Shown: piece by piece, positions 598-37,770 of the stretch | Layout: every line of letters starts with the position of its first letter | Position numbering within the stretch: position 1 is the stretch's first letter | Source of the DNA: Escherichia phage Schulenburg | Sequence record: MK931438.1 | Length of the DNA: 44,748 nucleotides | Direction: 5' to 3' (one strand) | Notes under the pieces: generated by a model | Database searches by the model: none | The model's input: the letters and a program-made list of their open reading frames with translations, nothing else | Told to the model about the DNA's origin: nothing | Position numbers and translations under genes: made by a program

Positions 598-1844
598 GTA
601 TCCAGCTATCCGCCCCTCAGGCGCTGTTCCTGAACTGCGATAACAAATACAAGGCCTATGTTGGTGGTTTCGGTAGTGGCAAGACGTTTGTTGGCTGTCT
701 GGACCTTCTTACGTTCATGCTTAAGCACCCCGGTACGCGCCTGGGCTATTTCGGCCCGACCTACCCGGCTATCCGTGACATCTTCTACCCTACGTTCGAG
801 GAAGCGGCTAACCTCCTGGGCCTCGATGTACTGGTTAAATCTGGAGACAAAGAGGTCGTCGTCACACGCGGTAAGACGGTAATCGGTACAGTAATCTGCC
901 GCTCGATGGATAACCCCGGCTCTATCGTTGGCTTCAAAATTGCGGCTGCGGTCGTGGATGAACTTGACGTATTGAGTCGCGAGAAAGCGGAACTGGCGTG
1001 GAACAAAATCGTAGCCCGTATGCGTCTTGTTATTCCTGGCGTAATTAACCACATCTCCGTTACCACGACGCCGGAGGGATTCAAGTTCGTCTATGCCAAG
1101 TTCAAAGAGAACCCGACACCAAGTTACTCGATGGTGCAGGCTTCCACCCACGAGAACGCCAGATTCCTTCCGCCTGACTACATCAGCTCGCTGACCGAGA
1201 CTTACCCAGCGCAACTGATTAACGCGTACCTGAACGGTGAGTTCGTTAACCTGACATCCGGCAGCGTGTATTACGCGTATGACCGCCGCAAGCACCGCAG
1301 CAAAGAGACAATTCAACCTGGTGACACTTTGTACATCGGCCAGGACTTCAACGTTACGAAGAACGCCAGCGCCGTGTATGTGCAACGTAAAGACGGCTGG
1401 CACGCGGTAGCGGAACTGAAAGGCCTGTTCGATACGCCGGATACCGTGCGCGTAATTACAGAGAAGTGGAAGTCACAAGGCCACCGCATCGTCGTTTACC
1501 CCGACGCCAGCGGCAAGAATCGCAAAACCAACTCGGCGTCAATCTCTGATATTGCATTACTCCAGCAGGCGGGGTTTGATGTTCGCGCTAAATCCGCCAA
1601 CCCCCCGGTTAAAGACCGTGTTTTAGCCGTGAATACCGCACTGGAAAAAGGTAAGCTGTGGGTTAACGACCACTTATGCCCCGAGATAGCGAAGACGCTG
1701 GAGCAGCAGGCATACGACGATAATGGAGAGCCAGCTAAAGACGGCGTAATCGACCATATGGCGGATGCCCTCGGCTATCCTGTAGTTTACGAGATGCCGG
1801 TGGTTAAACCCGTAATCAACATCCCGGTGACTTTCGCACTTTAA
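594..1844 (+). CDS. terminase large subunit
   Basis: Walker A-like GGFGSGKT near N-terminus; 416 aa; sits between putative TerS and portal. Confidence 0.8.
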   Translation: MSIQLSAPQALFLNCDNKYKAYVGGFGSGKTFVGCLDLLTFMLKHPGTRLGYFGPTYPAIRDIFYPTFEEAANLLGLDVLVKSGDKEVVVTRGKTVIGTVICRSMDNPGSIVGFKIAAAVVDELDVLSREKAELAWNKIVARMRLVIPGVINHISVTTTPEGFKFVYAKFKENPTPSYSMVQASTHENARFLPPDYISSLTETYPAQLINAYLNGEFVNLTSGSVYYAYDRRKHRSKETIQPGDTLYIGQDFNVTKNASAVYVQRKDGWHAVAELKGLFDTPDTVRVITEKWKSQGHRIVVYPDASGKNRKTNSASISDIALLQQAGFDVRAKSANPPVKDRVLAVNTALEKGKLWVNDHLCPEIAKTLEQQAYDDNGEPAKDGVIDHMADALGYPVVYEMPVVKPVINIPVTFAL

Positions 1845-1856
1845 GAGGATTATTCA

Positions 1857-3338
1857 ATGTTAACTATGAACGGTCAGAATCAGGGTGTTAAGACAAAACA
1901 CCGGGAATGGCTGCATCACTTCGATAAATGGCAGAAGGTACGCCACGCACTGGAAGGCGACCTTATTCGCTATCTTCGCAACGTCGGGAAGAACGAGCCG
2001 GACCCGACCTACGCGGCACAGCGGCAGGAAGAATACGAGAACGGTGCTATCTGCTACAACTTCACTAAACGTACCCTGGCGGGGATGGTCGGCAGTGTCA
2101 TGCGCAAAGACCCTGAGCAGATTATTCCGCCTGAACTGGAGTACCTGCTACGTAATGCCGACGGTTCCGGTGTCGGGCTGTGGCAGCACGCGCAGGACAC
2201 GCTGATGGAAATTGACTCAGTAGGCCGTGGCGGGTTGCTGGTGGACGCGCCGGAGACCGCCGCCGCAACGGCAGCAGAGCAGAACGCAGGATTATTAAAC
2301 CCGGTCATCGCTTTCTATACCGCAGAGAACATCATCAACTGGCGCCTGACCCGCATCGGTTCAGTTAACCGCGTGACAATGGTCGTGTTGCGCGAAGTAT
2401 GGGAATACTCAGAACCAGGTGCAGAGTTCGAAACAAAGTTCGGTGAACAATACCGCGTTCTCGATTTGATTGACGGGCGCTACCGCCAGCGCATTTACCG
2501 CTTCGATGCCGAAGGTGGTGCGCAGGATGAAGTAATCGAAATATTCCCGGAACTCGGCGAACAGTTACGCGGTAAAATCCCGTTTACGTTCATTGGGGCA
2601 AGCAACAACGACGCCACTATAGACGATGCGCCTTTGCTGCCGTTGGCTGAACTCAATATCGGGCATTTCCGCAACAGCGCAGACAATGAGGAGTCCAGCT
2701 TCGTTGTAGGTCAGCCCACTCTGTTCATCGCCCCGGGCGGGAATATGAGCATGGAGCAGTGGAAAGAAGCCAACCCACACGGGGTACGCATGGGGTCGCG
2801 TTCAGGCCATAACATCGGTGAGGGCGGCAATGCGTTTCTGGTTCAGGCGGGGGAGAACAACCTCGCCAAGCAGAACATGCTGGATAAAGAGAATCAGGCC
2901 ATCCAGATTGGCGCACAGCTTATTACCCCGACGCAGCAAATCACCGCTGAATCGGCCCGTCTGCAACGTGGCGCTGATACGTCTGTTATGTCGACAATCG
3001 CACGTAACGTAAGCATGGCGTACACCGATGCGTTGCGCTGGGTAGCTGCGATGCTCGGGCTTAGTGACGGTACTGAGATTGAGTTCAAGCTGAATATGGA
3101 GTTCTTCCTGCAACCGATGACCGCTCAGGACCGCGCTCAGTGGATGGCGGACATTAATGCCGGTCTGCTGCCAGCGACCGCATACTACGCCGCGTTGCGT
3201 AAAGCAGGGGTGACTGACTGGACCGACGAGGATATTCAGAACGCTATTGAGGACGCACCTCTGCCGTTAGGTGCTGTTACTCAGGTGGCAGGAGAGATTC
3301 CGCAGTCGGTGCAGCAACAAGATGTCACTCAGCAGTAA
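1857..3338 (+). CDS. portal protein
   Basis: 493-aa ORF directly after TerL with GAGGA SD; synteny terminase-portal-MuF. Confidence 0.65.
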   Translation: MLTMNGQNQGVKTKHREWLHHFDKWQKVRHALEGDLIRYLRNVGKNEPDPTYAAQRQEEYENGAICYNFTKRTLAGMVGSVMRKDPEQIIPPELEYLLRNADGSGVGLWQHAQDTLMEIDSVGRGGLLVDAPETAAATAAEQNAGLLNPVIAFYTAENIINWRLTRIGSVNRVTMVVLREVWEYSEPGAEFETKFGEQYRVLDLIDGRYRQRIYRFDAEGGAQDEVIEIFPELGEQLRGKIPFTFIGASNNDATIDDAPLLPLAELNIGHFRNSADNEESSFVVGQPTLFIAPGGNMSMEQWKEANPHGVRMGSRSGHNIGEGGNAFLVQAGENNLAKQNMLDKENQAIQIGAQLITPTQQITAESARLQRGADTSVMSTIARNVSMAYTDALRWVAAMLGLSDGTEIEFKLNMEFFLQPMTAQDRAQWMADINAGLLPATAYYAALRKAGVTDWTDEDIQNAIEDAPLPLGAVTQVAGEIPQSVQQQDVTQQ

Positions 3339-3348
3339 GTTCACATAT

Positions 3349-3371
3349 AGCCCCGAAAGGGGCTTTCTTAT
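3349..3371 (+). terminator. intrinsic terminator-like hairpin after portal gene
   Basis: agcccc-gaaa-ggggct stem-loop followed by TTTCTTAT. Confidence 0.45.
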
Positions 3372-3407
3372 AGTATGCTATTAACTTTAGCGCCACAGGG
3401 TTTATCT

Positions 3408-4451
3408 ATGAGCTTACTTACATCTCTAATCAGCCACCAGATATGGCTGCAACGCACTGCATCCGGTGAGGTGAAAGACCTCGCGCCGTTCATTAAGGAG
3501 ATGCGGGACGAAATAAAACGGCAGGTGCTGTTATTCGGTGACGACGGGCGGAGCACTGCGCGACTGAATAAACTGTTACTCGACCTTGAAGAAGCGCTAA
3601 CCGGACTTACCGGCGATTGGCAAACAAAGCTGACAGAAGACCTTATGGAACTGGCGGCGTATGAGGCCGAGTGGAATGTAAAGACACTGACCACCAACGT
3701 AGATGCGGAATTTGTTACGCCTACTGCCGAACAGGTGTGGTCCGCTGCCGAGTTTCAACCCTTATCATTAAGCGACAAGCCTGTTGATTTCACTAAGCTG
3801 ATGTCGGGATGGGGTGAAACCGAAGTAGCACGTCTCGTAACCGGCGTTAAGATGGGCTTTGTTCAGGGTAAGACAACACGGCAGATTGTTAAGAATGTTG
3901 TTGGTGCTGGTGGTTTGGCGGACATTTCAGAACGTAACGCGGCTACTGTAATCCGCACCGCGCTGTCTCATGTATCCAACGAGGCCCGTAACGAGACGTA
4001 CCGCCAGAACGACGACATTATCGAGAAGTACGAGTGGGTGTCGACGCTGGACAGCCGTACCAGTACGATTTGTAGGGCCAGAGACGGAATGACGTGGGAA
4101 ATCGGTAAGGGGCCGATGCCCCCGGCCCATTTTGGGTGCCGAAGTACCACGGCACCTGTAATCAGTTCAGAGTTCGACTTCCTCGATAAAGGTGCAAAAC
4201 GTGCGGCTAAGGGCGCGGACGGAGGTACTCAGGTAAGCGCAGACACCACTTACTACGAGTTCCTGAAACAACAACCGGCGTGGTTCGTGGACGAAGCACT
4301 CGGGCCGACCCGCGGTGCGATATTCAGGAATAGTGGGATATCGCCAGAGGAATTCCGGGTAATATCTGTCGACGCTTTTGGTAGACCTTTAACCCTGAAG
4401 GAGATGGCGGAGTTAGACAACAGGGTTGCTGAATATCTTAGGTCGGTATAA
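3408..4451 (+). CDS. head morphogenesis protein (Mu gpF / SPP1 gp7-like)
   Basis: Follows portal; C-terminal motif AHFGCRSTTAP resembles the MuF-family H-x2-CRC signature; ATG 3408 (AGGG SD) preferred over ATG 3375, which lies in the terminator T-tract. Confidence 0.7.
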   Translation: MSLLTSLISHQIWLQRTASGEVKDLAPFIKEMRDEIKRQVLLFGDDGRSTARLNKLLLDLEEALTGLTGDWQTKLTEDLMELAAYEAEWNVKTLTTNVDAEFVTPTAEQVWSAAEFQPLSLSDKPVDFTKLMSGWGETEVARLVTGVKMGFVQGKTTRQIVKNVVGAGGLADISERNAATVIRTALSHVSNEARNETYRQNDDIIEKYEWVSTLDSRTSTICRARDGMTWEIGKGPMPPAHFGCRSTTAPVISSEFDFLDKGAKRAAKGADGGTQVSADTTYYEFLKQQPAWFVDEALGPTRGAIFRNSGISPEEFRVISVDAFGRPLTLKEMAELDNRVAEYLRSV

Positions 4452-5609: not shown

Positions 5610-5642
5610 AAAGGCCCCATAATGGGGCCTTAGTTTTATTTA
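5610..5642. terminator. bidirectional intrinsic terminator
   Basis: 8-bp stem aggcccca / tggggcct flanked by A-run upstream and TTTTATTT downstream; lies between convergent genes 5149-5607 (+) and 5636-6157 (-). Confidence 0.6.
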
Positions 5643-6157
5643 AATCGCGCAGGCATTAACACCATAAAGGCCGTGTTTGAAAATTGTATTTTGCATCCTC
5701 TGGTTTGGTCCTGGAAATCGAAACGAGCAATTTCATTTTTGTATGCCTTAGAAATCTTGTACGCGTCTGCCAAATAGCGCAGAGTGAACCCTATACTACC
5801 GACAACACCTGGTGTGATGTGCGCCACGCGTCTCCAGTCAGGAAAGTTTCCTTCTACAACATCTACCGGAAGTGTACATATAAGCGCACGATTATCGTCA
5901 TAGAAAGATACACTGCCGTTGTCGTGGTCTACCTCTGCGTAGTTAAATTTAGAAGGCTCTCTCCCTTTAATGTCGACGAGAACCCCTTTCTCAACGTTCG
6001 TCTTCACATTGTCGCAGAACAATCTATGACCGTCCGTAGACACTATCAATCCTTCAGGGTCTATGTAAAAAGCGTTCAAATAGTATCGAACATCATTTTT
6101 AGCCCTGCATATTTTCGCCCCTACATACGCAGGGAAAGTAATTACTGTAGTAACCAT
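5636..6157 (-). CDS. hypothetical protein (opposite-strand moron)
   Basis: 173-aa ORF on minus strand inside the head module; AGGAGG SD; own promoter motif upstream and convergent terminator; locally AT-rich. Confidence 0.6.
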   Translation of the reverse strand: MVTTVITFPAYVGAKICRAKNDVRYYLNAFYIDPEGLIVSTDGHRLFCDNVKTNVEKGVLVDIKGREPSKFNYAEVDHDNGSVSFYDDNRALICTLPVDVVEGNFPDWRRVAHITPGVVGSIGFTLRYLADAYKISKAYKNEIARFDFQDQTRGCKIQFSNTAFMVLMPARFK

Positions 6158-11677: not shown

Positions 11678-12090
11678 TGGGCTACTTTGAAGACTTAACC
11701 AAAGCGTTCGACGTGCCGCTGGTAGCCTTCGGGGCCACCAACGGCATCAGGGTAGCGCTTGAGAACATCGACGCTCCGACGTCAACCGATACGCCATACC
11801 TTGCGAGTTACATGCTACTGGCGGATACCGAGCAGGCCGACTTATTTTTCACAGAGCAACGCGCCGGTGTTTATCAGGTGGACATTAACTACGCATCGGT
11901 GAAAGGTAGCGCGCCAATCAATAAAATGGCAGACTTACTTAACACGGCGTTTAAAGCAGGTAAGTCTTTTTCACGTAACGACATCTGCGCCGAAGTGCAA
12001 TCGGTTAGCCTGGGGCCGCTGATTGTAGAAAATGGATGGGCTAAAAGACCATTGTCGATTAACTTTATTGCATTCACCAAGAGGCTGTGA
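11674..12090 (+). CDS. tail terminator-like protein (putative)
   Basis: 138-aa ORF immediately upstream of major tail gene; positional. Confidence 0.45.
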   Translation: MMGYFEDLTKAFDVPLVAFGATNGIRVALENIDAPTSTDTPYLASYMLLADTEQADLFFTEQRAGVYQVDINYASVKGSAPINKMADLLNTAFKAGKSFSRNDICAEVQSVSLGPLIVENGWAKRPLSINFIAFTKRL

Positions 12091-13229
12091 ATATGGCTAC
12101 AACTCCTTTTAAGGGCGCGAATACCGCGCAATTCTATGTGGCGGAAACTACCCCGGGCGTGACACCGACTTCCCCGGTATGGTCGCCGTTGCGTAATACT
12201 GGCGGCGTTCCCGCGATTACCCGCGACACTTTGACCTCCAACGAACTGGACGGCAGCCGCGAAACTACGTCAATTCGCACTGGTAACAAACAGGTTAGCG
12301 GTGAATACGCCATCGAGCTTAGCTCTAAAAGTCAGGATGACTGGCTGGCAGGTGCTTTAGGCTCTACGTGGCAATCAGGTGTATCCTTAACTGACCTGTC
12401 AATTACCGTCGCACCGGCAGGCAAGACGTTCACCCGTGCTGATGGTAGCTTTATTACCGACGGCGTTGAAGTAGGCGACCTGATTGCGTTTACCGACTTA
12501 ACGGGAGATAACGCAAAACCGTTCATCGTCACTGCGGTAGAGGCACTGGTAGTGACCGGTGCGGGCATCCAGCACACTCTCACCACAGAGACCGCTACTA
12601 CTGCTGCTAAGACAGGCGACAAACTGGAAACCGGTAGCCAGTGTAAGACGTTCTCTATTCTCACATGGTACAAAGGCCAGTGCGGCGGGACTGACGCGTA
12701 CACGCTTACCAAAGGTGTAGAAGTTTCTGGTTTCACTGTTGAGCAGGCCGTTAACGCGATGGTAACGGGCAGCTTCCCGTTCATCGGGCGCAGCCAGGAG
12801 ATTCTCACCGAGCCGCCGTCTGGTTCTGATTTCTCCTCTGTTACGTTTGGTGATGAGCCGTTCTCCTCAGTTGACGTTTCTGTGTTCGATGGCTCTACGC
12901 CGTTGCGTTGTGATAGCCTTACCATCACCAACGACAACAGCGCGTCCGCGCAGTTCGAACTCGGCAACACTAACGTTGCGTTTGTGGAACGTAGCCGCGC
13001 GGCCAACACCTTCTCCATCTCCGGTAAGCTGTACGACATGGCGATGATTCAGAAGTTTATCAACGAACAGCAGGTAGAGATTAACTCTATTCTGGCGGGG
13101 GTAAACGGGGCTATGTCTTTCAGTCTGAAACGTGCAGAACTCACGGCGGTTACGCCAGAGATTGGTGGTCCTGAGTCAATCACTCAGAGCATAGAAGGAC
13201 AGTCAACAGGCAATCAATATCAATCTTAA
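12087..13229 (+). CDS. major tail protein (putative)
   Basis: 380-aa ORF upstream of chaperones and tape measure, followed by a strong terminator. Confidence 0.6.
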   Translation: MNMATTPFKGANTAQFYVAETTPGVTPTSPVWSPLRNTGGVPAITRDTLTSNELDGSRETTSIRTGNKQVSGEYAIELSSKSQDDWLAGALGSTWQSGVSLTDLSITVAPAGKTFTRADGSFITDGVEVGDLIAFTDLTGDNAKPFIVTAVEALVVTGAGIQHTLTTETATTAAKTGDKLETGSQCKTFSILTWYKGQCGGTDAYTLTKGVEVSGFTVEQAVNAMVTGSFPFIGRSQEILTEPPSGSDFSSVTFGDEPFSSVDVSVFDGSTPLRCDSLTITNDNSASAQFELGNTNVAFVERSRAANTFSISGKLYDMAMIQKFINEQQVEINSILAGVNGAMSFSLKRAELTAVTPEIGGPESITQSIEGQSTGNQYQS

Positions 13230-13243
13230 TCAATATCAATCTT
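13212..13243 (+). repeat. tandem direct repeat, 2 x 16 nt (aatcaatatcaatctt)
   Basis: Exact 16-mer duplicated back-to-back across the stop codon of the major tail gene. Confidence 0.5.
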
Positions 13244-13273
13244 CTATTGTAATACAGCGCATTAGCTACGCGT

Positions 13274-13310
13274 AAGGAAAAGGCCCCTTTCGGGGCCTTT
13301 TCCTTATTCC
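13274..13310. terminator. strong bidirectional intrinsic terminator
   Basis: Perfect 14-bp stem aaggaaaaggcccc / ggggccttttcctt with TTTC loop, A-rich 5' side and T-rich 3' side; between convergent genes. Confidence 0.7.
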
Positions 13311-13477
13311 TTCAATTGCATTGGGTAGAAGTTAACGAGTTCTCCTTTATCCCGAAGCCGTGAATATTCATCTAACGCATCTTCCCGGCTACTTACAGCA
13401 TAGATATCATTCCACTCGTCCCATTCTTTGTCGTATACGCGGATTATGTATATTGTTTTCATTACATTCTTACTCAT
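13304..13477 (-). CDS. hypothetical small protein (57 aa)
   Basis: Minus-strand ORF, ATG at 13477 (M15 of track ORF 13304-13519); last gene of the moron operon. Confidence 0.4.
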   Translation of the reverse strand: MSKNVMKTIYIIRVYDKEWDEWNDIYAVSSREDALDEYSRLRDKGELVNFYPMQLKE

Positions 13478-13700
13478 CAATATTACTCCTGTACTCTCGT
13501 AACTTCTCCAGACTTTCAATTGCTTCCGCTAAGTCGGTTCCGGTGTCTTTGTGCCCGCGAAGGCCCATACACAATAGCTTCTTCAATGCGTGCTGTAGCG
13601 CCGGGTCGCGAATGTCGAAGGCACGCAGCACATCATAAACGTCTACTGTCATAGTGCTGCCGTGAGTGTTTGTCATTGTGCGGTTGTATTTATTTGTCAC
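13470..13700 (-). CDS. hypothetical conserved small phage protein
   Basis: 76-aa ORF with GTG start preceded by AAGAGAG; motif DVYDVLRAFDI...HALKKLL..GLRGHK. Confidence 0.45.
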   Translation of the reverse strand: MTNKYNRTMTNTHGSTMTVDVYDVLRAFDIRDPALQHALKKLLCMGLRGHKDTGTDLAEAIESLEKLREYRSNIDE

Positions 13701-13890
13701 TGTTAACTCTCTTAAATCTGGCTATGCCTGACTCGTTAATGTTGCCTATTTCAAAGAAGCTGCGATATTTAGGCGAATACATTCTTACATCGCCATTCTC
13801 TAGGGTGACCCCTTCATATACAGCACCTACTTCGAATCCATTTTTCTCCGCGTACGGACTCACATCGGTGCATTCATACATGTCTTTCAT
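13690..13890 (-). CDS. hypothetical protein (66 aa)
   Basis: ATG overlaps stop of upstream gene (ATGA); same operon. Confidence 0.45.
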   Translation of the reverse strand: MKDMYECTDVSPYAEKNGFEVGAVYEGVTLENGDVRMYSPKYRSFFEIGNINESGIARFKRVNSDK

Positions 13891-15017
13891 CCAAGCATCT
13901 CCGGTGAAATAGTTAAACGTGCGACCTCGCCATATTCGGCGCTATAAGTAATTACATTTGCACTACGACCTGACATCCATCCGCCGCGAGAGGCGTAGGC
14001 GTCTTTAGCCGCCAGGGTGCGGTGTTGCTCAACAACCATGTTACGGCTTTCTACAATCTTCTGATGGTGCAGGTGGCCTACATGGGCGTAGCTGTAAACA
14101 CTCTCGCCGAACGCTTTGCGGAACTTGGCAATCATAACCGGTTCGATAGCGTCGAATCGTGCCTTATGCCCGTGGTGAAAGAACAGCGTCGTTTTGCCGT
14201 GTTGCACCATCTTGTAAACATCTGGCGACGTGTCGACGAACACCCGCGGCTCGTTGTCGTACAGCGTACTAAACATCTCAGCTAACCAAATCATTCCGCT
14301 TTCGTCGTGGTTTCCTTGCACGATAAGCAAGCGAACATTTTTATGCTTAACCAGCGCCATACCGACAACACGGCGTACCATACGAATCATGTAGCGGACC
14401 AGTTTCTGATAACGAGTGTCCGCATCAAGAACATGACCACTCGCTGGCGTAACCGCATCCAGACTATCGAAGTGCGCGAAGTCACCCAGCAGGTTAATAA
14501 CCCCAGTTCCTGCATCTGGTGCTTTCTGAAACGCCGCATCGAACCATCGGGAGAACAGGTCTTCTGCAATCTTCATGTCCCAGTCGTCGCCGCTCTCGTC
14601 GGCCCAGGCCAGCATACCGAGATGGAAATCAGATACAGTGTAAAGATTAAGTAGTTTATCGTCACGTTTGGCGCGAACGGCTTTAACAGGCGCAACCGGC
14701 GTAATCTCTGACTTCATGCCCTCGATTACAGCTTTCATCAACTCGACCTGACGTTCAGCGTCAGTGTCTGTCTTAACCCATTGCAACTTAGTGTTGCCGA
14801 ACTCGTCCACAAGCGACGACGTTCCTTTAATCTTGTAGCCGTCCGGGACAAGATGGCTAACGTCACGACCGTGACCTACGCCTTTCTTCGCCAGCTTCGC
14901 TTTACGGATACGAATAACTCGGTCTGAGATGCCGTATTTACGGGATATGTCGATAATCTTTGTTCCGGCGTTCAATTCTTCCTGTAACTGTTCGTCGGTT
15001 ATTTTAATCCGGGCCAT
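13887..15017 (-). CDS. HTH-domain + calcineurin-like metallophosphoesterase
   Basis: Metallophosphoesterase motifs in order: DFHLG, GDFAHFD, GNHDE, HHGH, GHLHH; N-terminal ~100 aa HTH-like; GAGGAAG SD. Confidence 0.7.
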   Translation of the reverse strand: MARIKITDEQLQEELNAGTKIIDISRKYGISDRVIRIRKAKLAKKGVGHGRDVSHLVPDGYKIKGTSSLVDEFGNTKLQWVKTDTDAERQVELMKAVIEGMKSEITPVAPVKAVRAKRDDKLLNLYTVSDFHLGMLAWADESGDDWDMKIAEDLFSRWFDAAFQKAPDAGTGVINLLGDFAHFDSLDAVTPASGHVLDADTRYQKLVRYMIRMVRRVVGMALVKHKNVRLLIVQGNHDESGMIWLAEMFSTLYDNEPRVFVDTSPDVYKMVQHGKTTLFFHHGHKARFDAIEPVMIAKFRKAFGESVYSYAHVGHLHHQKIVESRNMVVEQHRTLAAKDAYASRGGWMSGRSANVITYSAEYGEVARLTISPEMLG

Positions 15018-15056
15018 GCTTTACTTCCTCGTGTTTAGGATTTGTCCTATACTAGC

Positions 15057-15248
15057 TCACTTCTCTTTGACATTCGAGTTGCAAGCCCAGATTAAAATAA
15101 ATACCCACGGCAGCAGAACCCAGCCAAGAAACAGATTGGCCATGAATATCGCTAATTTCGCTTTATGACCCCGCATATGGGCCACTAAAAACGGGATAAA
15201 ATAAACTAAAACGATAATGATTAAGAAGAACATAGTAATACCTGTCAT
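15057..15248 (-). CDS. superinfection-immunity-like small membrane protein
   Basis: 63 aa, two predicted TM helices, motif YFIPFLVAHMRGHK...LGWVLLPWVFILIWA resembling Imm-type families; AGGAG SD. Confidence 0.5.
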   Translation of the reverse strand: MTGITMFFLIIIVLVYFIPFLVAHMRGHKAKLAIFMANLFLGWVLLPWVFILIWACNSNVKEK

Positions 15249-15289
15249 GGTGTAGCTCCTGTTTGAGTTAACATTGTTGGTGTAAGTGA

Positions 15290-15318
15290 ATAGTATCCTA
15301 TTATGTTGGGGTGCGCAA
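15290..15318 (-). promoter_or_regulatory. type-B promoter/operator (TTGCGC-N17-TACTAT over palindrome AATAGGATACTATT)
   Basis: Same architecture as sites near 6185, 38175 and 39101; about 40 nt upstream of the Imm-like gene. Confidence 0.45.
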
Positions 15319-15426
15319 GTAATGTGATAGAATAATTTTGCGCCTAGTGTCGCACACGAAAAGCGGGTGGTTCCCGTCTGGCGCATTTACCATTAACCTG
15401 TAACCTCTTAACCAAAGGATTAAAGA

Positions 15427-15843
15427 ATGAAACTTTCTGATTTTTATTACGAAGCTGAGGCAGAAAAAGGCGCCCGTATGCCGATACCACTGAAAGACGG
15501 CACCGATTCAGGGGAGTGGCTGAACGTTGTTTCACCGGAGGCAGACGTTGCTGTTAAAGCTATGAGGGCGTTTACACTTGCGTACCGCGCGGCATTAGGT
15601 AAATTGAAACCGCTTCGCGATAAATGCGAGGAACTGAAAGATTTCTCGGAATACAACATCAAGATGGAAGACGCCGCAACGGACCTTAACCGCCAGTTAG
15701 CGCTTGAACTGGTTAACGGTTGGAGTCTCGACGATGAATTTAATAAAGAGAACCTGAATACTCTTTTCTCACAATATAAACGACTCGCTGAACACGTTGT
15801 TGTTTTCCACAATGAACAGCTTCACCAATTGCAGGAAAAGTAG
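15427..15843 (+). CDS. tail assembly chaperone (gpG-like, putative)
   Basis: 138-aa ORF immediately upstream of tape measure gene. Confidence 0.5.
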   Translation: MKLSDFYYEAEAEKGARMPIPLKDGTDSGEWLNVVSPEADVAVKAMRAFTLAYRAALGKLKPLRDKCEELKDFSEYNIKMEDAATDLNRQLALELVNGWSLDDEFNKENLNTLFSQYKRLAEHVVVFHNEQLHQLQEK

Positions 15844-15848
15844 ACGCG

Positions 15849-16208
15849 TTGCTCCAGTTTGCCCGTTGGAACTTCATAACCCGCCACAAACGGCGGGAGT
15901 TTGACAGTATCGCCGACGGGCATAAAGCCGCGCTAATTGCTATGGGGGTTATGCAAGACGCGCCGGAAGCAACGCAGGACACAGGGCCGGAATGCCCCCC
16001 TGAGCTATTAACCACCTTCGAGAAGTACAGGGAAATCAAATTCACCCGCCGAGTGGACGATGATGGCATCAAGATGTACCCGCGCGAACAGTTAAGATGG
16101 TCGGATTTAGTGGCATACAGCACCGTTTCAGGCCAGAATATAGGCATGTTCGAATCTGACATCATCATGAGCTTAGACGCTATTTTCGAGGGTAGAAACG
16201 ATGGCTGA
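15849..16208 (+). CDS. tail assembly chaperone, second ORF (TTG start or frameshift extension)
   Basis: -1-frame ORF between chaperone 1 and TMP, overlapping TMP start; no ATG, only a TTG. Confidence 0.4.
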   Translation: MLQFARWNFITRHKRREFDSIADGHKAALIAMGVMQDAPEATQDTGPECPPELLTTFEKYREIKFTRRVDDDGIKMYPREQLRWSDLVAYSTVSGQNIGMFESDIIMSLDAIFEGRNDG

Positions 16209-37384: not shown

Positions 37385-37591
37385 ATCGCCTGCAAACCAC
37401 GCGTGCGCAGAATCATAGAAACGACATTTACTTAATACCTCGATTGGCATCTTAATAATGCGCGTCGGTTCCGACAAATGATTAGGCTTACATATTTCTA
37501 CATAGAATCCGCTGTCAGTAATTTCTGACGCAAACTTAAACCGGTATTTAACTTTACCGTCTTCAAAGTAACAACCCATACGCCCAATCAT
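37379..37591 (-). CDS. hypothetical protein (70 aa)
   Basis: ORF coupled to upstream AlpA-like gene. Confidence 0.5.
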   Translation of the reverse strand: MIGRMGCYFEDGKVKYRFKFASEITDSGFYVEICKPNHLSEPTRIIKMPIEVLSKCRFYDSAHAWFAGDK

Positions 37592-37770
37592 TTCACGTTC
37601 TCCTTAATCCATGCTTCAACTTTATTACGGTCAAATGTACCCGGTAAACGGCGGCCCATTACTTTAATACAGCAGTCAGGGAATTTACCACTGCGCAGCC
37701 AGTTATTAATTGTCTGACGTGTCACACCGATACGTTCTGCTACTTCATTCTGGGTCATGTAATGTTGCAT
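37588..37770 (-). CDS. AlpA/Xis-like DNA-binding protein
   Basis: MTQNEVAERIGVTRQTINNWLRSGKFP HTH; ATG at 37770 with AGGAGA SD. Confidence 0.5.
   Translation of the reverse strand: MQHYMTQNEVAERIGVTRQTINNWLRSGKFPDCCIKVMGRRLPGTFDRNKVEAWIKENVK

Follow-up and report, generated by a model that had tools for sequence, protein, structure and literature searches.

This analysis concerns a five-gene cassette on the minus strand of the tail region of Escherichia phage Schulenburg (sequence record MK931438.1), for which the closest described systems come from phages HK97, T5 and T4 and from a mycobacteriophage. In the temperate phage HK97, the moron gene gp15 is reportedly a superinfection exclusion gene situated inside the tail gene cluster, as Cumby et al. 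are said to have described in 2012 and 2015. Its product is said to be a small inner-membrane protein, encoded beside the tape-measure gene under transcription signals of its own and expressed from the prophage, and exclusion has reportedly been connected with the incoming phage's tape-measure protein.

In T5, the early gene llp encodes Llp, given in PMC9586334 as a lipoprotein blocking the outer-membrane receptor FhuA. T4 Imm is an inner-membrane protein of 83 amino acids and, according to PMC9409062, is likewise a member of the PHROG family that the cassette Imm matches. Among enzymes of the metallophosphoesterase (MPE) superfamily, phage proteins reported to degrade host DNA are T5 A1 (bioRxiv 10.64898/2026.04.02.716235) and Gp48 of mycobacteriophage A10ZJ24 (PMC12287305).

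The Schulenburg cassette was studied within a window of 44 748 nt, which is the whole stretch of DNA that was analysed. It departs from HK97 gp15 in being a five-gene, opposite-strand operon conserved across a phage subfamily, and no sequence relatedness between the two is claimed. With T5 llp it shares the setting of a virulent siphovirus with an envelope-targeted exclusion protein transcribed apart from the adjacent structural gene (in T5 that of the receptor-binding protein), and Llp is matched in approximate size by the periplasmic alternatives to Imm that relatives carry (the SP108 and SP114 families); the cassette protein is however of the inner-membrane Imm type and not a lipoprotein acting at the outer membrane, and this likeness is one of description. 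On balance we regard the cassette as probably, though by no means certainly, a conserved leftward operon of the non-structural programme of the Guernseyvirinae, running antisense between the tail-tube and the chaperone/tape-measure genes and consisting of a putative exclusion gene, a probable nuclease gene and a variable tail.

Anatomy and conservation of the cassette site

The window represents a Kagunavirus (Guernseyvirinae), and its region 12800-15900 was 99.4% identical over the full length to Escherichia phage Snoke. In total, 447 phage records matched this region, mostly from Salmonella Jerseyvirus and E. coli Kagunavirus. The Snoke record annotates, in order, a tail tube protein, terminators on both strands, three hypothetical proteins, a 'phosphoesterase', a 'superinfection immunity protein' and a tail assembly chaperone; the gene content of the cassette is already present, gene for gene, in public GenBank annotation. 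The Imm gene of related phages has been mentioned (PMC9409062, PMC9825357) and a predicted anti-repressor of a Jerseyvirus described (PMC9409062), and no experimental work on the cassette was found in the literature.

All five open reading frames (ORFs) of the minus-strand unit that the sequence-only reading had placed between the tail-tube and tail-chaperone genes were recovered, tightly packed, with overlaps of 4, 11 and 8 nt between successive members of the last four (MPE, s66, s76 and s57), which fits an operon. The contents it had named were likewise borne out: an Imm-like protein by its match to PF14373, a metallophosphoesterase fused to a helix-turn-helix (HTH) by its motifs, its structural model and the HTH matches of its homologues, and three small proteins by their ORFs. 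Across the region the GC skew changes to negative and the GC content drops to about 0.46.

Table 1. Features of the cassette, its flanks and the related dyads, in window coordinates.
Feature	Position	Strand or place	Evidence and remarks
Tail tube gene	12087-13229	flank	Phage_tube_2, 4.6e-36
Bidirectional intrinsic terminator, common to tail-tube gene (+) and cassette (-)	13273-13306	both	hairpin fold
s57, 57 aa, last cassette gene	13304-13477	-	ORF
s76, 76 aa, GTG start	13470-13700	-	ORF; phrog_2452, 8.6e-37
s66, 66 aa	13690-13890	-	ORF; start overlaps MPE stop as ATGA
HTH-metallophosphoesterase (MPE), 376 aa	13887-15017	-	ORF, motifs, fold
Dyad TAGGATTTGTCCTA	15036-15049		exact; ~20 nt upstream of MPE start codon
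Imm, 63 aa	15057-15248	-	PF14373; AGGAG Shine-Dalgarno 7 nt before ATG
Dyad AATAG-N4-CTATT	15289-15302		overlaps cassette promoter -10
Cassette promoter TTGCGC-N17-TACTAT	15290-15318	-	-35 at 15313-15318, -10 at 15290-15295, spacer 17 nt
Extended -10 promoter-like element TGaTAGAAT, facing tail chaperone genes	15325-15333	+	conservation
Structured leader resembling int-alpA RNA (RF02996), 65 nt	15337-15401	+	covariance model and consensus fold
Tail chaperone genes	15427-15843 and 15849-16208	flank	Phage_TAC_4, Phage_TAC_18
14-bp AATAG-N4-CTATT dyads	6184, 15289, 28057, 31759, 34296, 38192, 39117		in promoter-like sites

For comparison with relatives, 72 loci encoding MPE relatives were retrieved, which together with three GenBank loci and the window gave 48 loci containing both the tube and the chaperone gene. 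The sample was gathered through MPE homology, and the presence of MPE in all 48 loci is not independent evidence of its conservation. Altogether 25 gene arrangements were observed, the distal end being a mosaic of s66, s76 and s57, a HAD-type 'polynucleotide kinase'-family protein with a deoxynucleoside monophosphate (dNMP) kinase, HNH endonucleases, an Ant/Rha-like protein (inside the cassette in some Jerseyvirus loci) and a small membrane protein. When the gene content at the site was compared in this way, as the sequence-only reading had proposed, only gene 1 and the distal genes behaved as exchangeable elements, while MPE and the site itself were constant.

Independently of MPE, a query was built from the 3′ end of the tube gene joined directly to the 5′ end of the chaperone gene. 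This junction matched 450 records, and the two genes lay farther apart than about 0.8 kb in 449 of them. The sole exception, Hafnia phage TS33 (OR844384.1, 28905-29422), carries on the minus strand a mini-cassette of two genes, one for a signal-peptide protein of 119 aa and one for a protein of 51 aa, with the same kind of promoter, terminator and leader. Because the cassette is found in essentially all 450 junction records, the TS33 mini-cassette included, the site with its promoter, envelope-targeted first gene and terminator is fixed throughout the subfamily; the same is nearly true of MPE, and the remainder behaves as exchangeable accessory DNA. The proposal that a moron island had been inserted in this phage is thus only partly retained. 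A separate leftward unit with a promoter and a terminator of its own, as judged from sequence, is indeed embedded in the rightward tail operon, but it is not newly inserted, as close relatives do not lack it at this site.

Genes 3-5 are exchangeable accessory genes. The commonest of them, s76, occurred in 28 of the 48 loci and was mutually exclusive, in the position after MPE, with a pair formed by a phosphatase-like gene and the dNMP kinase gene (28 versus 17 loci, none with both); its homologues form 34 clusters, all of small stand-alone proteins lacking a Pfam domain. The s66 gene was present in eight loci and gave no Pfam or PHROG family match. Homologues of s57, 52-79% identical, occurred in seven loci at variable positions, and searches of Pfam, PHROG and NCBIfam returned no family match for it. 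NCBIfam and PADLOC returned nothing meaningful for any of the five cassette proteins.

Transcription signals and the divergent control region

The cassette promoter, which had been proposed as a type-B promoter belonging to the cassette, agrees with its predicted position in both the -35 and the -10 element, and it is one of a family. The motif CTTGCRC...ATAATAGGATACTATTCA, of which the 20-mer around the -10 was counted, is present four times in the window against none expected, and each copy is followed, 20-40 nt downstream, by a Shine-Dalgarno sequence and ATG in the same direction. The dyad AATAG-N4-CTATT is present in seven copies against 0.04 expected, every one within a promoter-like site: four overlap the -10 of TTGCRC-N17-TACTAT and three lie in the spacer of a near-consensus TTGAC-N17-TATAGT. 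In the paper on phage fBC-Eco01, the motif was found seven times and labelled 'phage promoter' (PMC9825357).

Among related loci, the promoter motif was found at the same position, about 107 nt from the chaperone start codon, in 39 of 48, regardless of the first gene, and similarity breaks off right after the -10 when the first gene differs. The remaining nine loci, Jerseyvirus among them, have diverged versions, the Jerseyvirus variant being TTGCAT-N17-TATTAT with the dyad AATAGTGTCCTATT. On this evidence it was concluded that the cassette possesses a promoter of its own.

One dyad promoter serves an Enc34-type SSB, with the gene of a family-A DNA polymerase (PolA) next downstream on the same strand; others serve a DUF2800/PD-(D/E)XK nuclease, a SNF2 helicase and two operons of small early-type genes (from 38230 and from 39161). 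The seven promoters look like the regulon of a phage-encoded DNA-binding protein, covering replication/recombination and small-gene operons, and the dyad is presumably the target of such a regulator. The cassette is probably co-regulated with the DNA-metabolism genes by the dyad-binding factor, and because its promoter is common to the replication and recombination operons, it looks like a part of the non-structural programme that has been displaced.

The same promoter type precedes a second, lone antisense gene (5636-6157, minus strand, 173 aa, without a Pfam match), which lies amid the plus-strand head and packaging region.

The cassette ends at a hairpin with the sequence TAAGGAAAAGGCCCC-TTTC-GGGGCCTTTTCCTTA, which folds at -28.7 kcal/mol on the plus and -29.5 on the minus strand (z-scores -6.0 and -5.5). 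Its GC core GGCCCC/GGGGCC is bordered by an A-tract and a T-tract, as expected of a two-way terminator, and the core GGCCCC-N4-GGGGCC recurs in 47 of the 48 loci whatever gene precedes it. The loop reads GAAA in 24 loci and TTTC in 14 with the stem unchanged, consistent with use on both strands, and both strands carry a terminator annotation in Snoke. The two-way terminator of the sequence-only reading stands accordingly, whereas its extent (13274-13310) and 14-bp stem are revised to the limits of Table 1 and to 15-16 bp. Rfam matches over the hairpin (ohsC, Atu_C8, Histone3 and others) were far below their gathering scores and merely reflect the strong hairpin.

Between the first two genes, the previously noticed palindrome TAGGA-N4-TCCTA was an exact match at its predicted position, at a frequency within the window not beyond chance. 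As an RNA hairpin it was rejected, its folding (-5.4 kcal/mol, z -0.6) being no better than that of shuffled sequence. The dyad forms the left edge of a block, ATAGGACAAATCCTAAACACGAGGAAG...ATG, that moves with the MPE gene whichever first gene precedes. Divergent relatives keep the dyad with altered arms (TAAGA/TCTTA; AATAAGA-N4-TCTTATT), and several lineages have an extended -10-like element, TGGTTAAAT, in front of it. The dyad is plausible as a candidate protein-binding site, possibly for the HTH of MPE itself.

Sequence conservation is higher in the intergenic region between cassette and chaperone genes than in the genes beside it. The extended -10-like element facing the chaperone genes overlaps the cassette promoter in a back-to-back arrangement; it reads TGnTAGAAT in 40 loci (only the 'n' varying) and TGnTATTCT in seven, while TGnTAnnnT is found in all 48; it is also conserved in Hafnia phage TS33.

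Downstream of this element, the leader matched the int-alpA model over its full length with 32.5 bits, below the gathering score of 35.8 (E 0.0054 for the whole window). The consensus fold from 12 distinct relatives has three stems with 14 pairs, six of which are preserved by changes in both partners; its G-U pairs fit the plus strand only. No other int-alpA copies were found in the window. Besides the full-model match, the leader has in common with int-alpA RNA the core CCUAG...CGAAAAGCGGG...CCCGCCUGGCGC; it differs in that the U-run following the outer stem of the Rfam consensus is reduced to AUUU. The int-alpA motif usually occurs near integrase or alpA genes, whereas this leader precedes a tail chaperone gene and belongs to a virulent phage, an unusual location for the motif. 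The window does encode an HTH_17 protein of the AlpA/excisionase type (37591-37770), and a functional link between this protein and the leader is speculation.

The divergent promoter and the leader are probably the means by which transcription of the tail genes resumes beyond the cassette. The overlapping back-to-back promoters, the regulator dyad and the int-alpA-like leader together could switch the phage between its non-structural and its tail-gene programme.

The Imm slot and the HTH-metallophosphoesterase

Imm matched PF14373 (Imm_superinfect) over all 42 profile positions, scoring 51.6 bits where the gathering score is 27.9 (E 8.7e-14), and phrog_1039 at 1.4e-23. Two hydrophobic segments, at about residues 4-24 and 30-57, were obtained by hydropathy calculation only (Kyte-Doolittle, 17-residue windows above 1.6 over residues 1-27 and 30-60 of 63). 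An Imm homologue was present in 380 phage records. A 109-aa form of the ORF (15057-15386), which is the coding sequence CPT_Snoke_025 of Snoke, overlaps the cassette promoter, and its N-terminal extension is in relatives a separate, interrupted ORF of 41 aa; for these reasons the 63-aa form is likely the actual protein.

Like T4 Imm, with which it shares a PF14373 match above the cutoff, the cassette Imm is a small inner-membrane protein with two helices, encoded by a virulent phage, and by analogy it most likely blocks the DNA entry of superinfecting phages. It differs from T4 Imm in its shorter length, in belonging to a siphovirus with a different DNA-delivery apparatus, and in having alleles that differ only in the first helix. 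In Kagunavirus two such alleles were distinguished, nearly identical over the C-terminal 38 residues and different throughout the first helix (window 15175-15248).

Gene 1 of the relatives is always a small membrane or signal-peptide protein: Imm in 33 of the 48 loci, a 108-109-aa signal-peptide protein (phrog_14165) in 11, and another signal-peptide protein or a 97-aa membrane protein in the rest. Its type follows the allele of the adjacent chaperone and tape-measure genes, also across the Kagunavirus/Jerseyvirus boundary, with two exceptions (loci L023 and L058). Chaperones about 93-100% identical to those of the window accompany Imm allele A, those at about 54% allele B, and those at about 46-49% the signal-peptide protein, whereas MPE, only 40 bp away, stays 93-99% identical within Kagunavirus and is not tracked by the first-gene type. 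The association might reflect nothing more than linkage over a short stretch of conserved intergenic DNA. It is doubtful, though conceivable, that the promoter-proximal slot is a specificity-matched superinfection-exclusion locus with the control region as a possible programme switch. If the association is functional, the exclusion protein would be adapted to the tape-measure protein carried by incoming phages of the same type.

The second gene encodes a protein with an N-terminal three-helix HTH (residues ~8-44), a linker of a beta-hairpin and a helix (61-104) and a calcineurin-like MPE domain (119-376). Its family is large, with 3,583 matches in a 90%-clustered database, 4,595 clusters at 50% identity and a typical length of 375-400 aa. 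In an alignment of 81 sequences with 33-50% identity to the query, all five metal-binding motifs (DxH, GD, GNH[D/E], H and GHxH) were conserved, with D130, H132, G178, D179, N236, H237, H282, G314 and H317 invariant and H315 at 90% or more. The beta-sandwich MPE fold is present in a confident AlphaFold model (predicted local distance difference test, pLDDT, 92.2), and the N-termini of homologues matched HTH_1, HTH_8, Sigma70_r4_2 (1.5e-9) and GerE (2.4e-8).

Structure-based searches point to a nuclease, though not decisively. Foldseek grouped Rv0805 (top, E 1.1e-8), Mre11 and archaeal PolD DP1 at about 1e-8; overall, the fold comes nearest to those of the nucleases PolD DP1, SbcD and Mre11, and the phosphodiesterases MJ0936, YfcE and GpdQ scored well too. 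A PDB search with the single sequence gave no matches, and one with the family profile gave only sub-threshold hits to GerE/LuxR-type HTH, in line with the HTH matches of the homologues, and to SbcD/Mre11 (E 0.08-1). Identity to Mre11, SbcD and DP1 is only 12-17%, and those enzymes lack the N-terminal HTH.

The chances that MPE is a DNA nuclease feeding nucleotide salvage are, in our estimate, roughly even. This reading is based on its DNA-binding domain, on the promoter shared with replication genes and on neighbouring genes in relatives: in 17 of the 48 loci, MPE is followed by a gene resembling HAD-type polynucleotide 3′-phosphatases (phrog_415) and a dNMP kinase gene (phrog_139), which together with a nuclease would form a coherent set for salvage from host DNA to deoxynucleoside triphosphates. 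In phages of other groups, MPE orthologues lie away from the tail module. One of 76% identity lies in Dhillonvirus between the lysis genes and terminase, and one of 69% in a Drexlerviridae phage between a methylase and an endolysin gene.

T5 A1 and Gp48 are comparable as MPE-superfamily enzymes expressed ahead of the structural genes, with reported degradation of host DNA. In T5, moreover, the gene order at 1706-4134, namely A2 (DNA-binding), a small protein with two transmembrane segments, and A1 (metallophosphatase), loosely parallels Imm with the HTH-MPE. No significant similarity to T5 A2 or T5.005 was found. To judge from its mutated motif residues D10, D41 and H175 (PMC12287305), Gp48 appears to differ in lacking an N-terminal extension before the MPE motifs.

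Weighing the readings and their meaning

Under the proposed non-structural operon, transcription of the cassette would start at the host-type promoter, with a phage-encoded regulator acting at the AATAG-N4-CTATT dyad, which would assign the cassette to the early/middle non-structural programme. The bidirectional terminator would insulate it from late tail transcription, and the divergent extended -10 promoter with its structured leader would restart transcription of the tail genes. Gene 1 would provide an inner-membrane Imm-family protein of two helices that hinders superinfecting phages from delivering their DNA, and gene 2 an HTH protein with an Mre11/SbcD/DP1-like MPE domain and a complete active site, which would cut or degrade host or damaged DNA and feed nucleotide salvage. 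In line with the proposed timing, an RNA-seq study of a Kagunavirus, poorly time-resolved, placed the Imm gene in the temporal class of the DNA methylases and DNA polymerase and not in that of the capsid and tail genes (PMC12645636). What the sequence analysis itself shows is the anatomy, the conservation, the promoter family, the fold and the active-site motifs; when the cassette is expressed, superinfection exclusion, nuclease activity and which protein is the regulator are inferred.

Several observations weigh against this reading, beginning with the limited time resolution of that study, in which, supplementary tables included, the MPE gene is not reported. A generic sigma-70 scan by itself was not above chance (five sites versus 6.9 expected), and the function assigned to Imm is carried over from T4 only. 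The MPE scored below the gathering scores of Pfam Metallophos (21.9 versus 27 bits) and Metallophos_2 (18.5 versus 21.5); the family is too divergent for these models, and for this reason superfamily membership is based on motifs and on the modelled fold. The profile match to T5 A1 comprised only 20 columns around the GNHD motif at 21% probability and was not significant, so that homology to this enzyme was rejected. No ORF for a Rad50/SbcC-like or polymerase partner is present in the cassette, and no Rad50/SbcC was seen among the annotated large ORFs of the window, which are all tail, tape-measure or replication proteins, not every ORF being annotated. Neither MPE nor Imm occurs anywhere in the genome of Hafnia phage TS33, which makes MPE dispensable for at least one member of the subfamily. 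Finally, ApeA, a defence triggered by dinucleotides from DNA breakdown, is reported to act on the Guernseyvirinae, with Dhillonvirus reported as resistant (bioRxiv 10.64898/2026.01.26.701840); as Dhillonvirus carries the 76% identical MPE, this misfits a simple link between MPE and host-DNA degradation, although the sensitivity pattern as a whole neither supports nor refutes the nuclease idea.

It is unlikely that the cassette is a moron-type accessory island with host interaction or anti-defence as its main job, in which MPE or the small proteins would neutralise bacterial defence. Such an island would fit a unit with its own promoter and terminator and a GC content of 0.455-0.46 against 0.52-0.54 in the flanks, as well as the distal mosaic, which resembles accessory hotspots and in some relatives includes Ant/Rha-like anti-repressor or HNH genes; a mycobacteriophage MPE has in addition been reported to silence defence genes by host-DNA degradation (PMC12287305). 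However, the cassette is essentially universal at this site in the subfamily and its promoter is common to the replication operons, while MPE was present without exception among the loci sampled and is retained, away from tail genes, by further genera of virulent siphoviruses. PMC9825357 describes these phages as devoid of lysogeny genes, so that the classical definition of a moron expressed from a prophage is inapplicable. For the anti-defence role suggested by the sequence-only reading no link was found, as PADLOC returned no matches for the five proteins and no known anti-defence family was matched.

The other two alternatives concern the substrate of MPE. A phosphodiesterase for signalling nucleotides, blunting CBASS, Pycsar, Thoeris or type III CRISPR-like signalling, is improbable: the top Foldseek match, Rv0805, is a cyclic-nucleotide phosphodiesterase, the three other phosphodiesterases named above score well, and one GenBank record names the neighbouring s76 homologue 'phosphodiesterase', but the family-wide HTH indicates DNA, the partner genes in relatives are the 3′-phosphatase-like and dNMP kinase genes, and PHROG and PADLOC searches gave no similarity to known anti-signalling enzymes. 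Still less probable, and in our estimate very improbable, is a part in RNA or DNA end healing together with the polynucleotide 3′-phosphatase-like gene, such as the repair of tRNAs cut by anticodon nucleases. Bacterial Pnkp proteins do use an MPE-type phosphoesterase domain for end healing, and the phrog_415 protein directly after MPE in relatives belongs to a family named 'polynucleotide kinase'; yet the window is without this phosphatase-like gene, the cassette has neither a polynucleotide kinase P-loop domain nor a ligase, and the adjacent kinase in relatives belongs to the dNMP kinase family, which indicates nucleotide salvage.

The result is mainly a correction, in that genomes of Kagunavirus and Jerseyvirus carry the cassette as a standard component, annotated in public records, and it is not an unusual insertion. 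The related loci, in which MPE is constant, the first gene swaps alleles and the distal end is shuffled, offer ready-made natural variants for experiments, and one biochemical study of the HTH-MPE family would annotate thousands of genes. Phages of the Guernseyvirinae type are widely isolated for therapy against E. coli and Salmonella, and swappable exclusion alleles could affect the design of phage cocktails.

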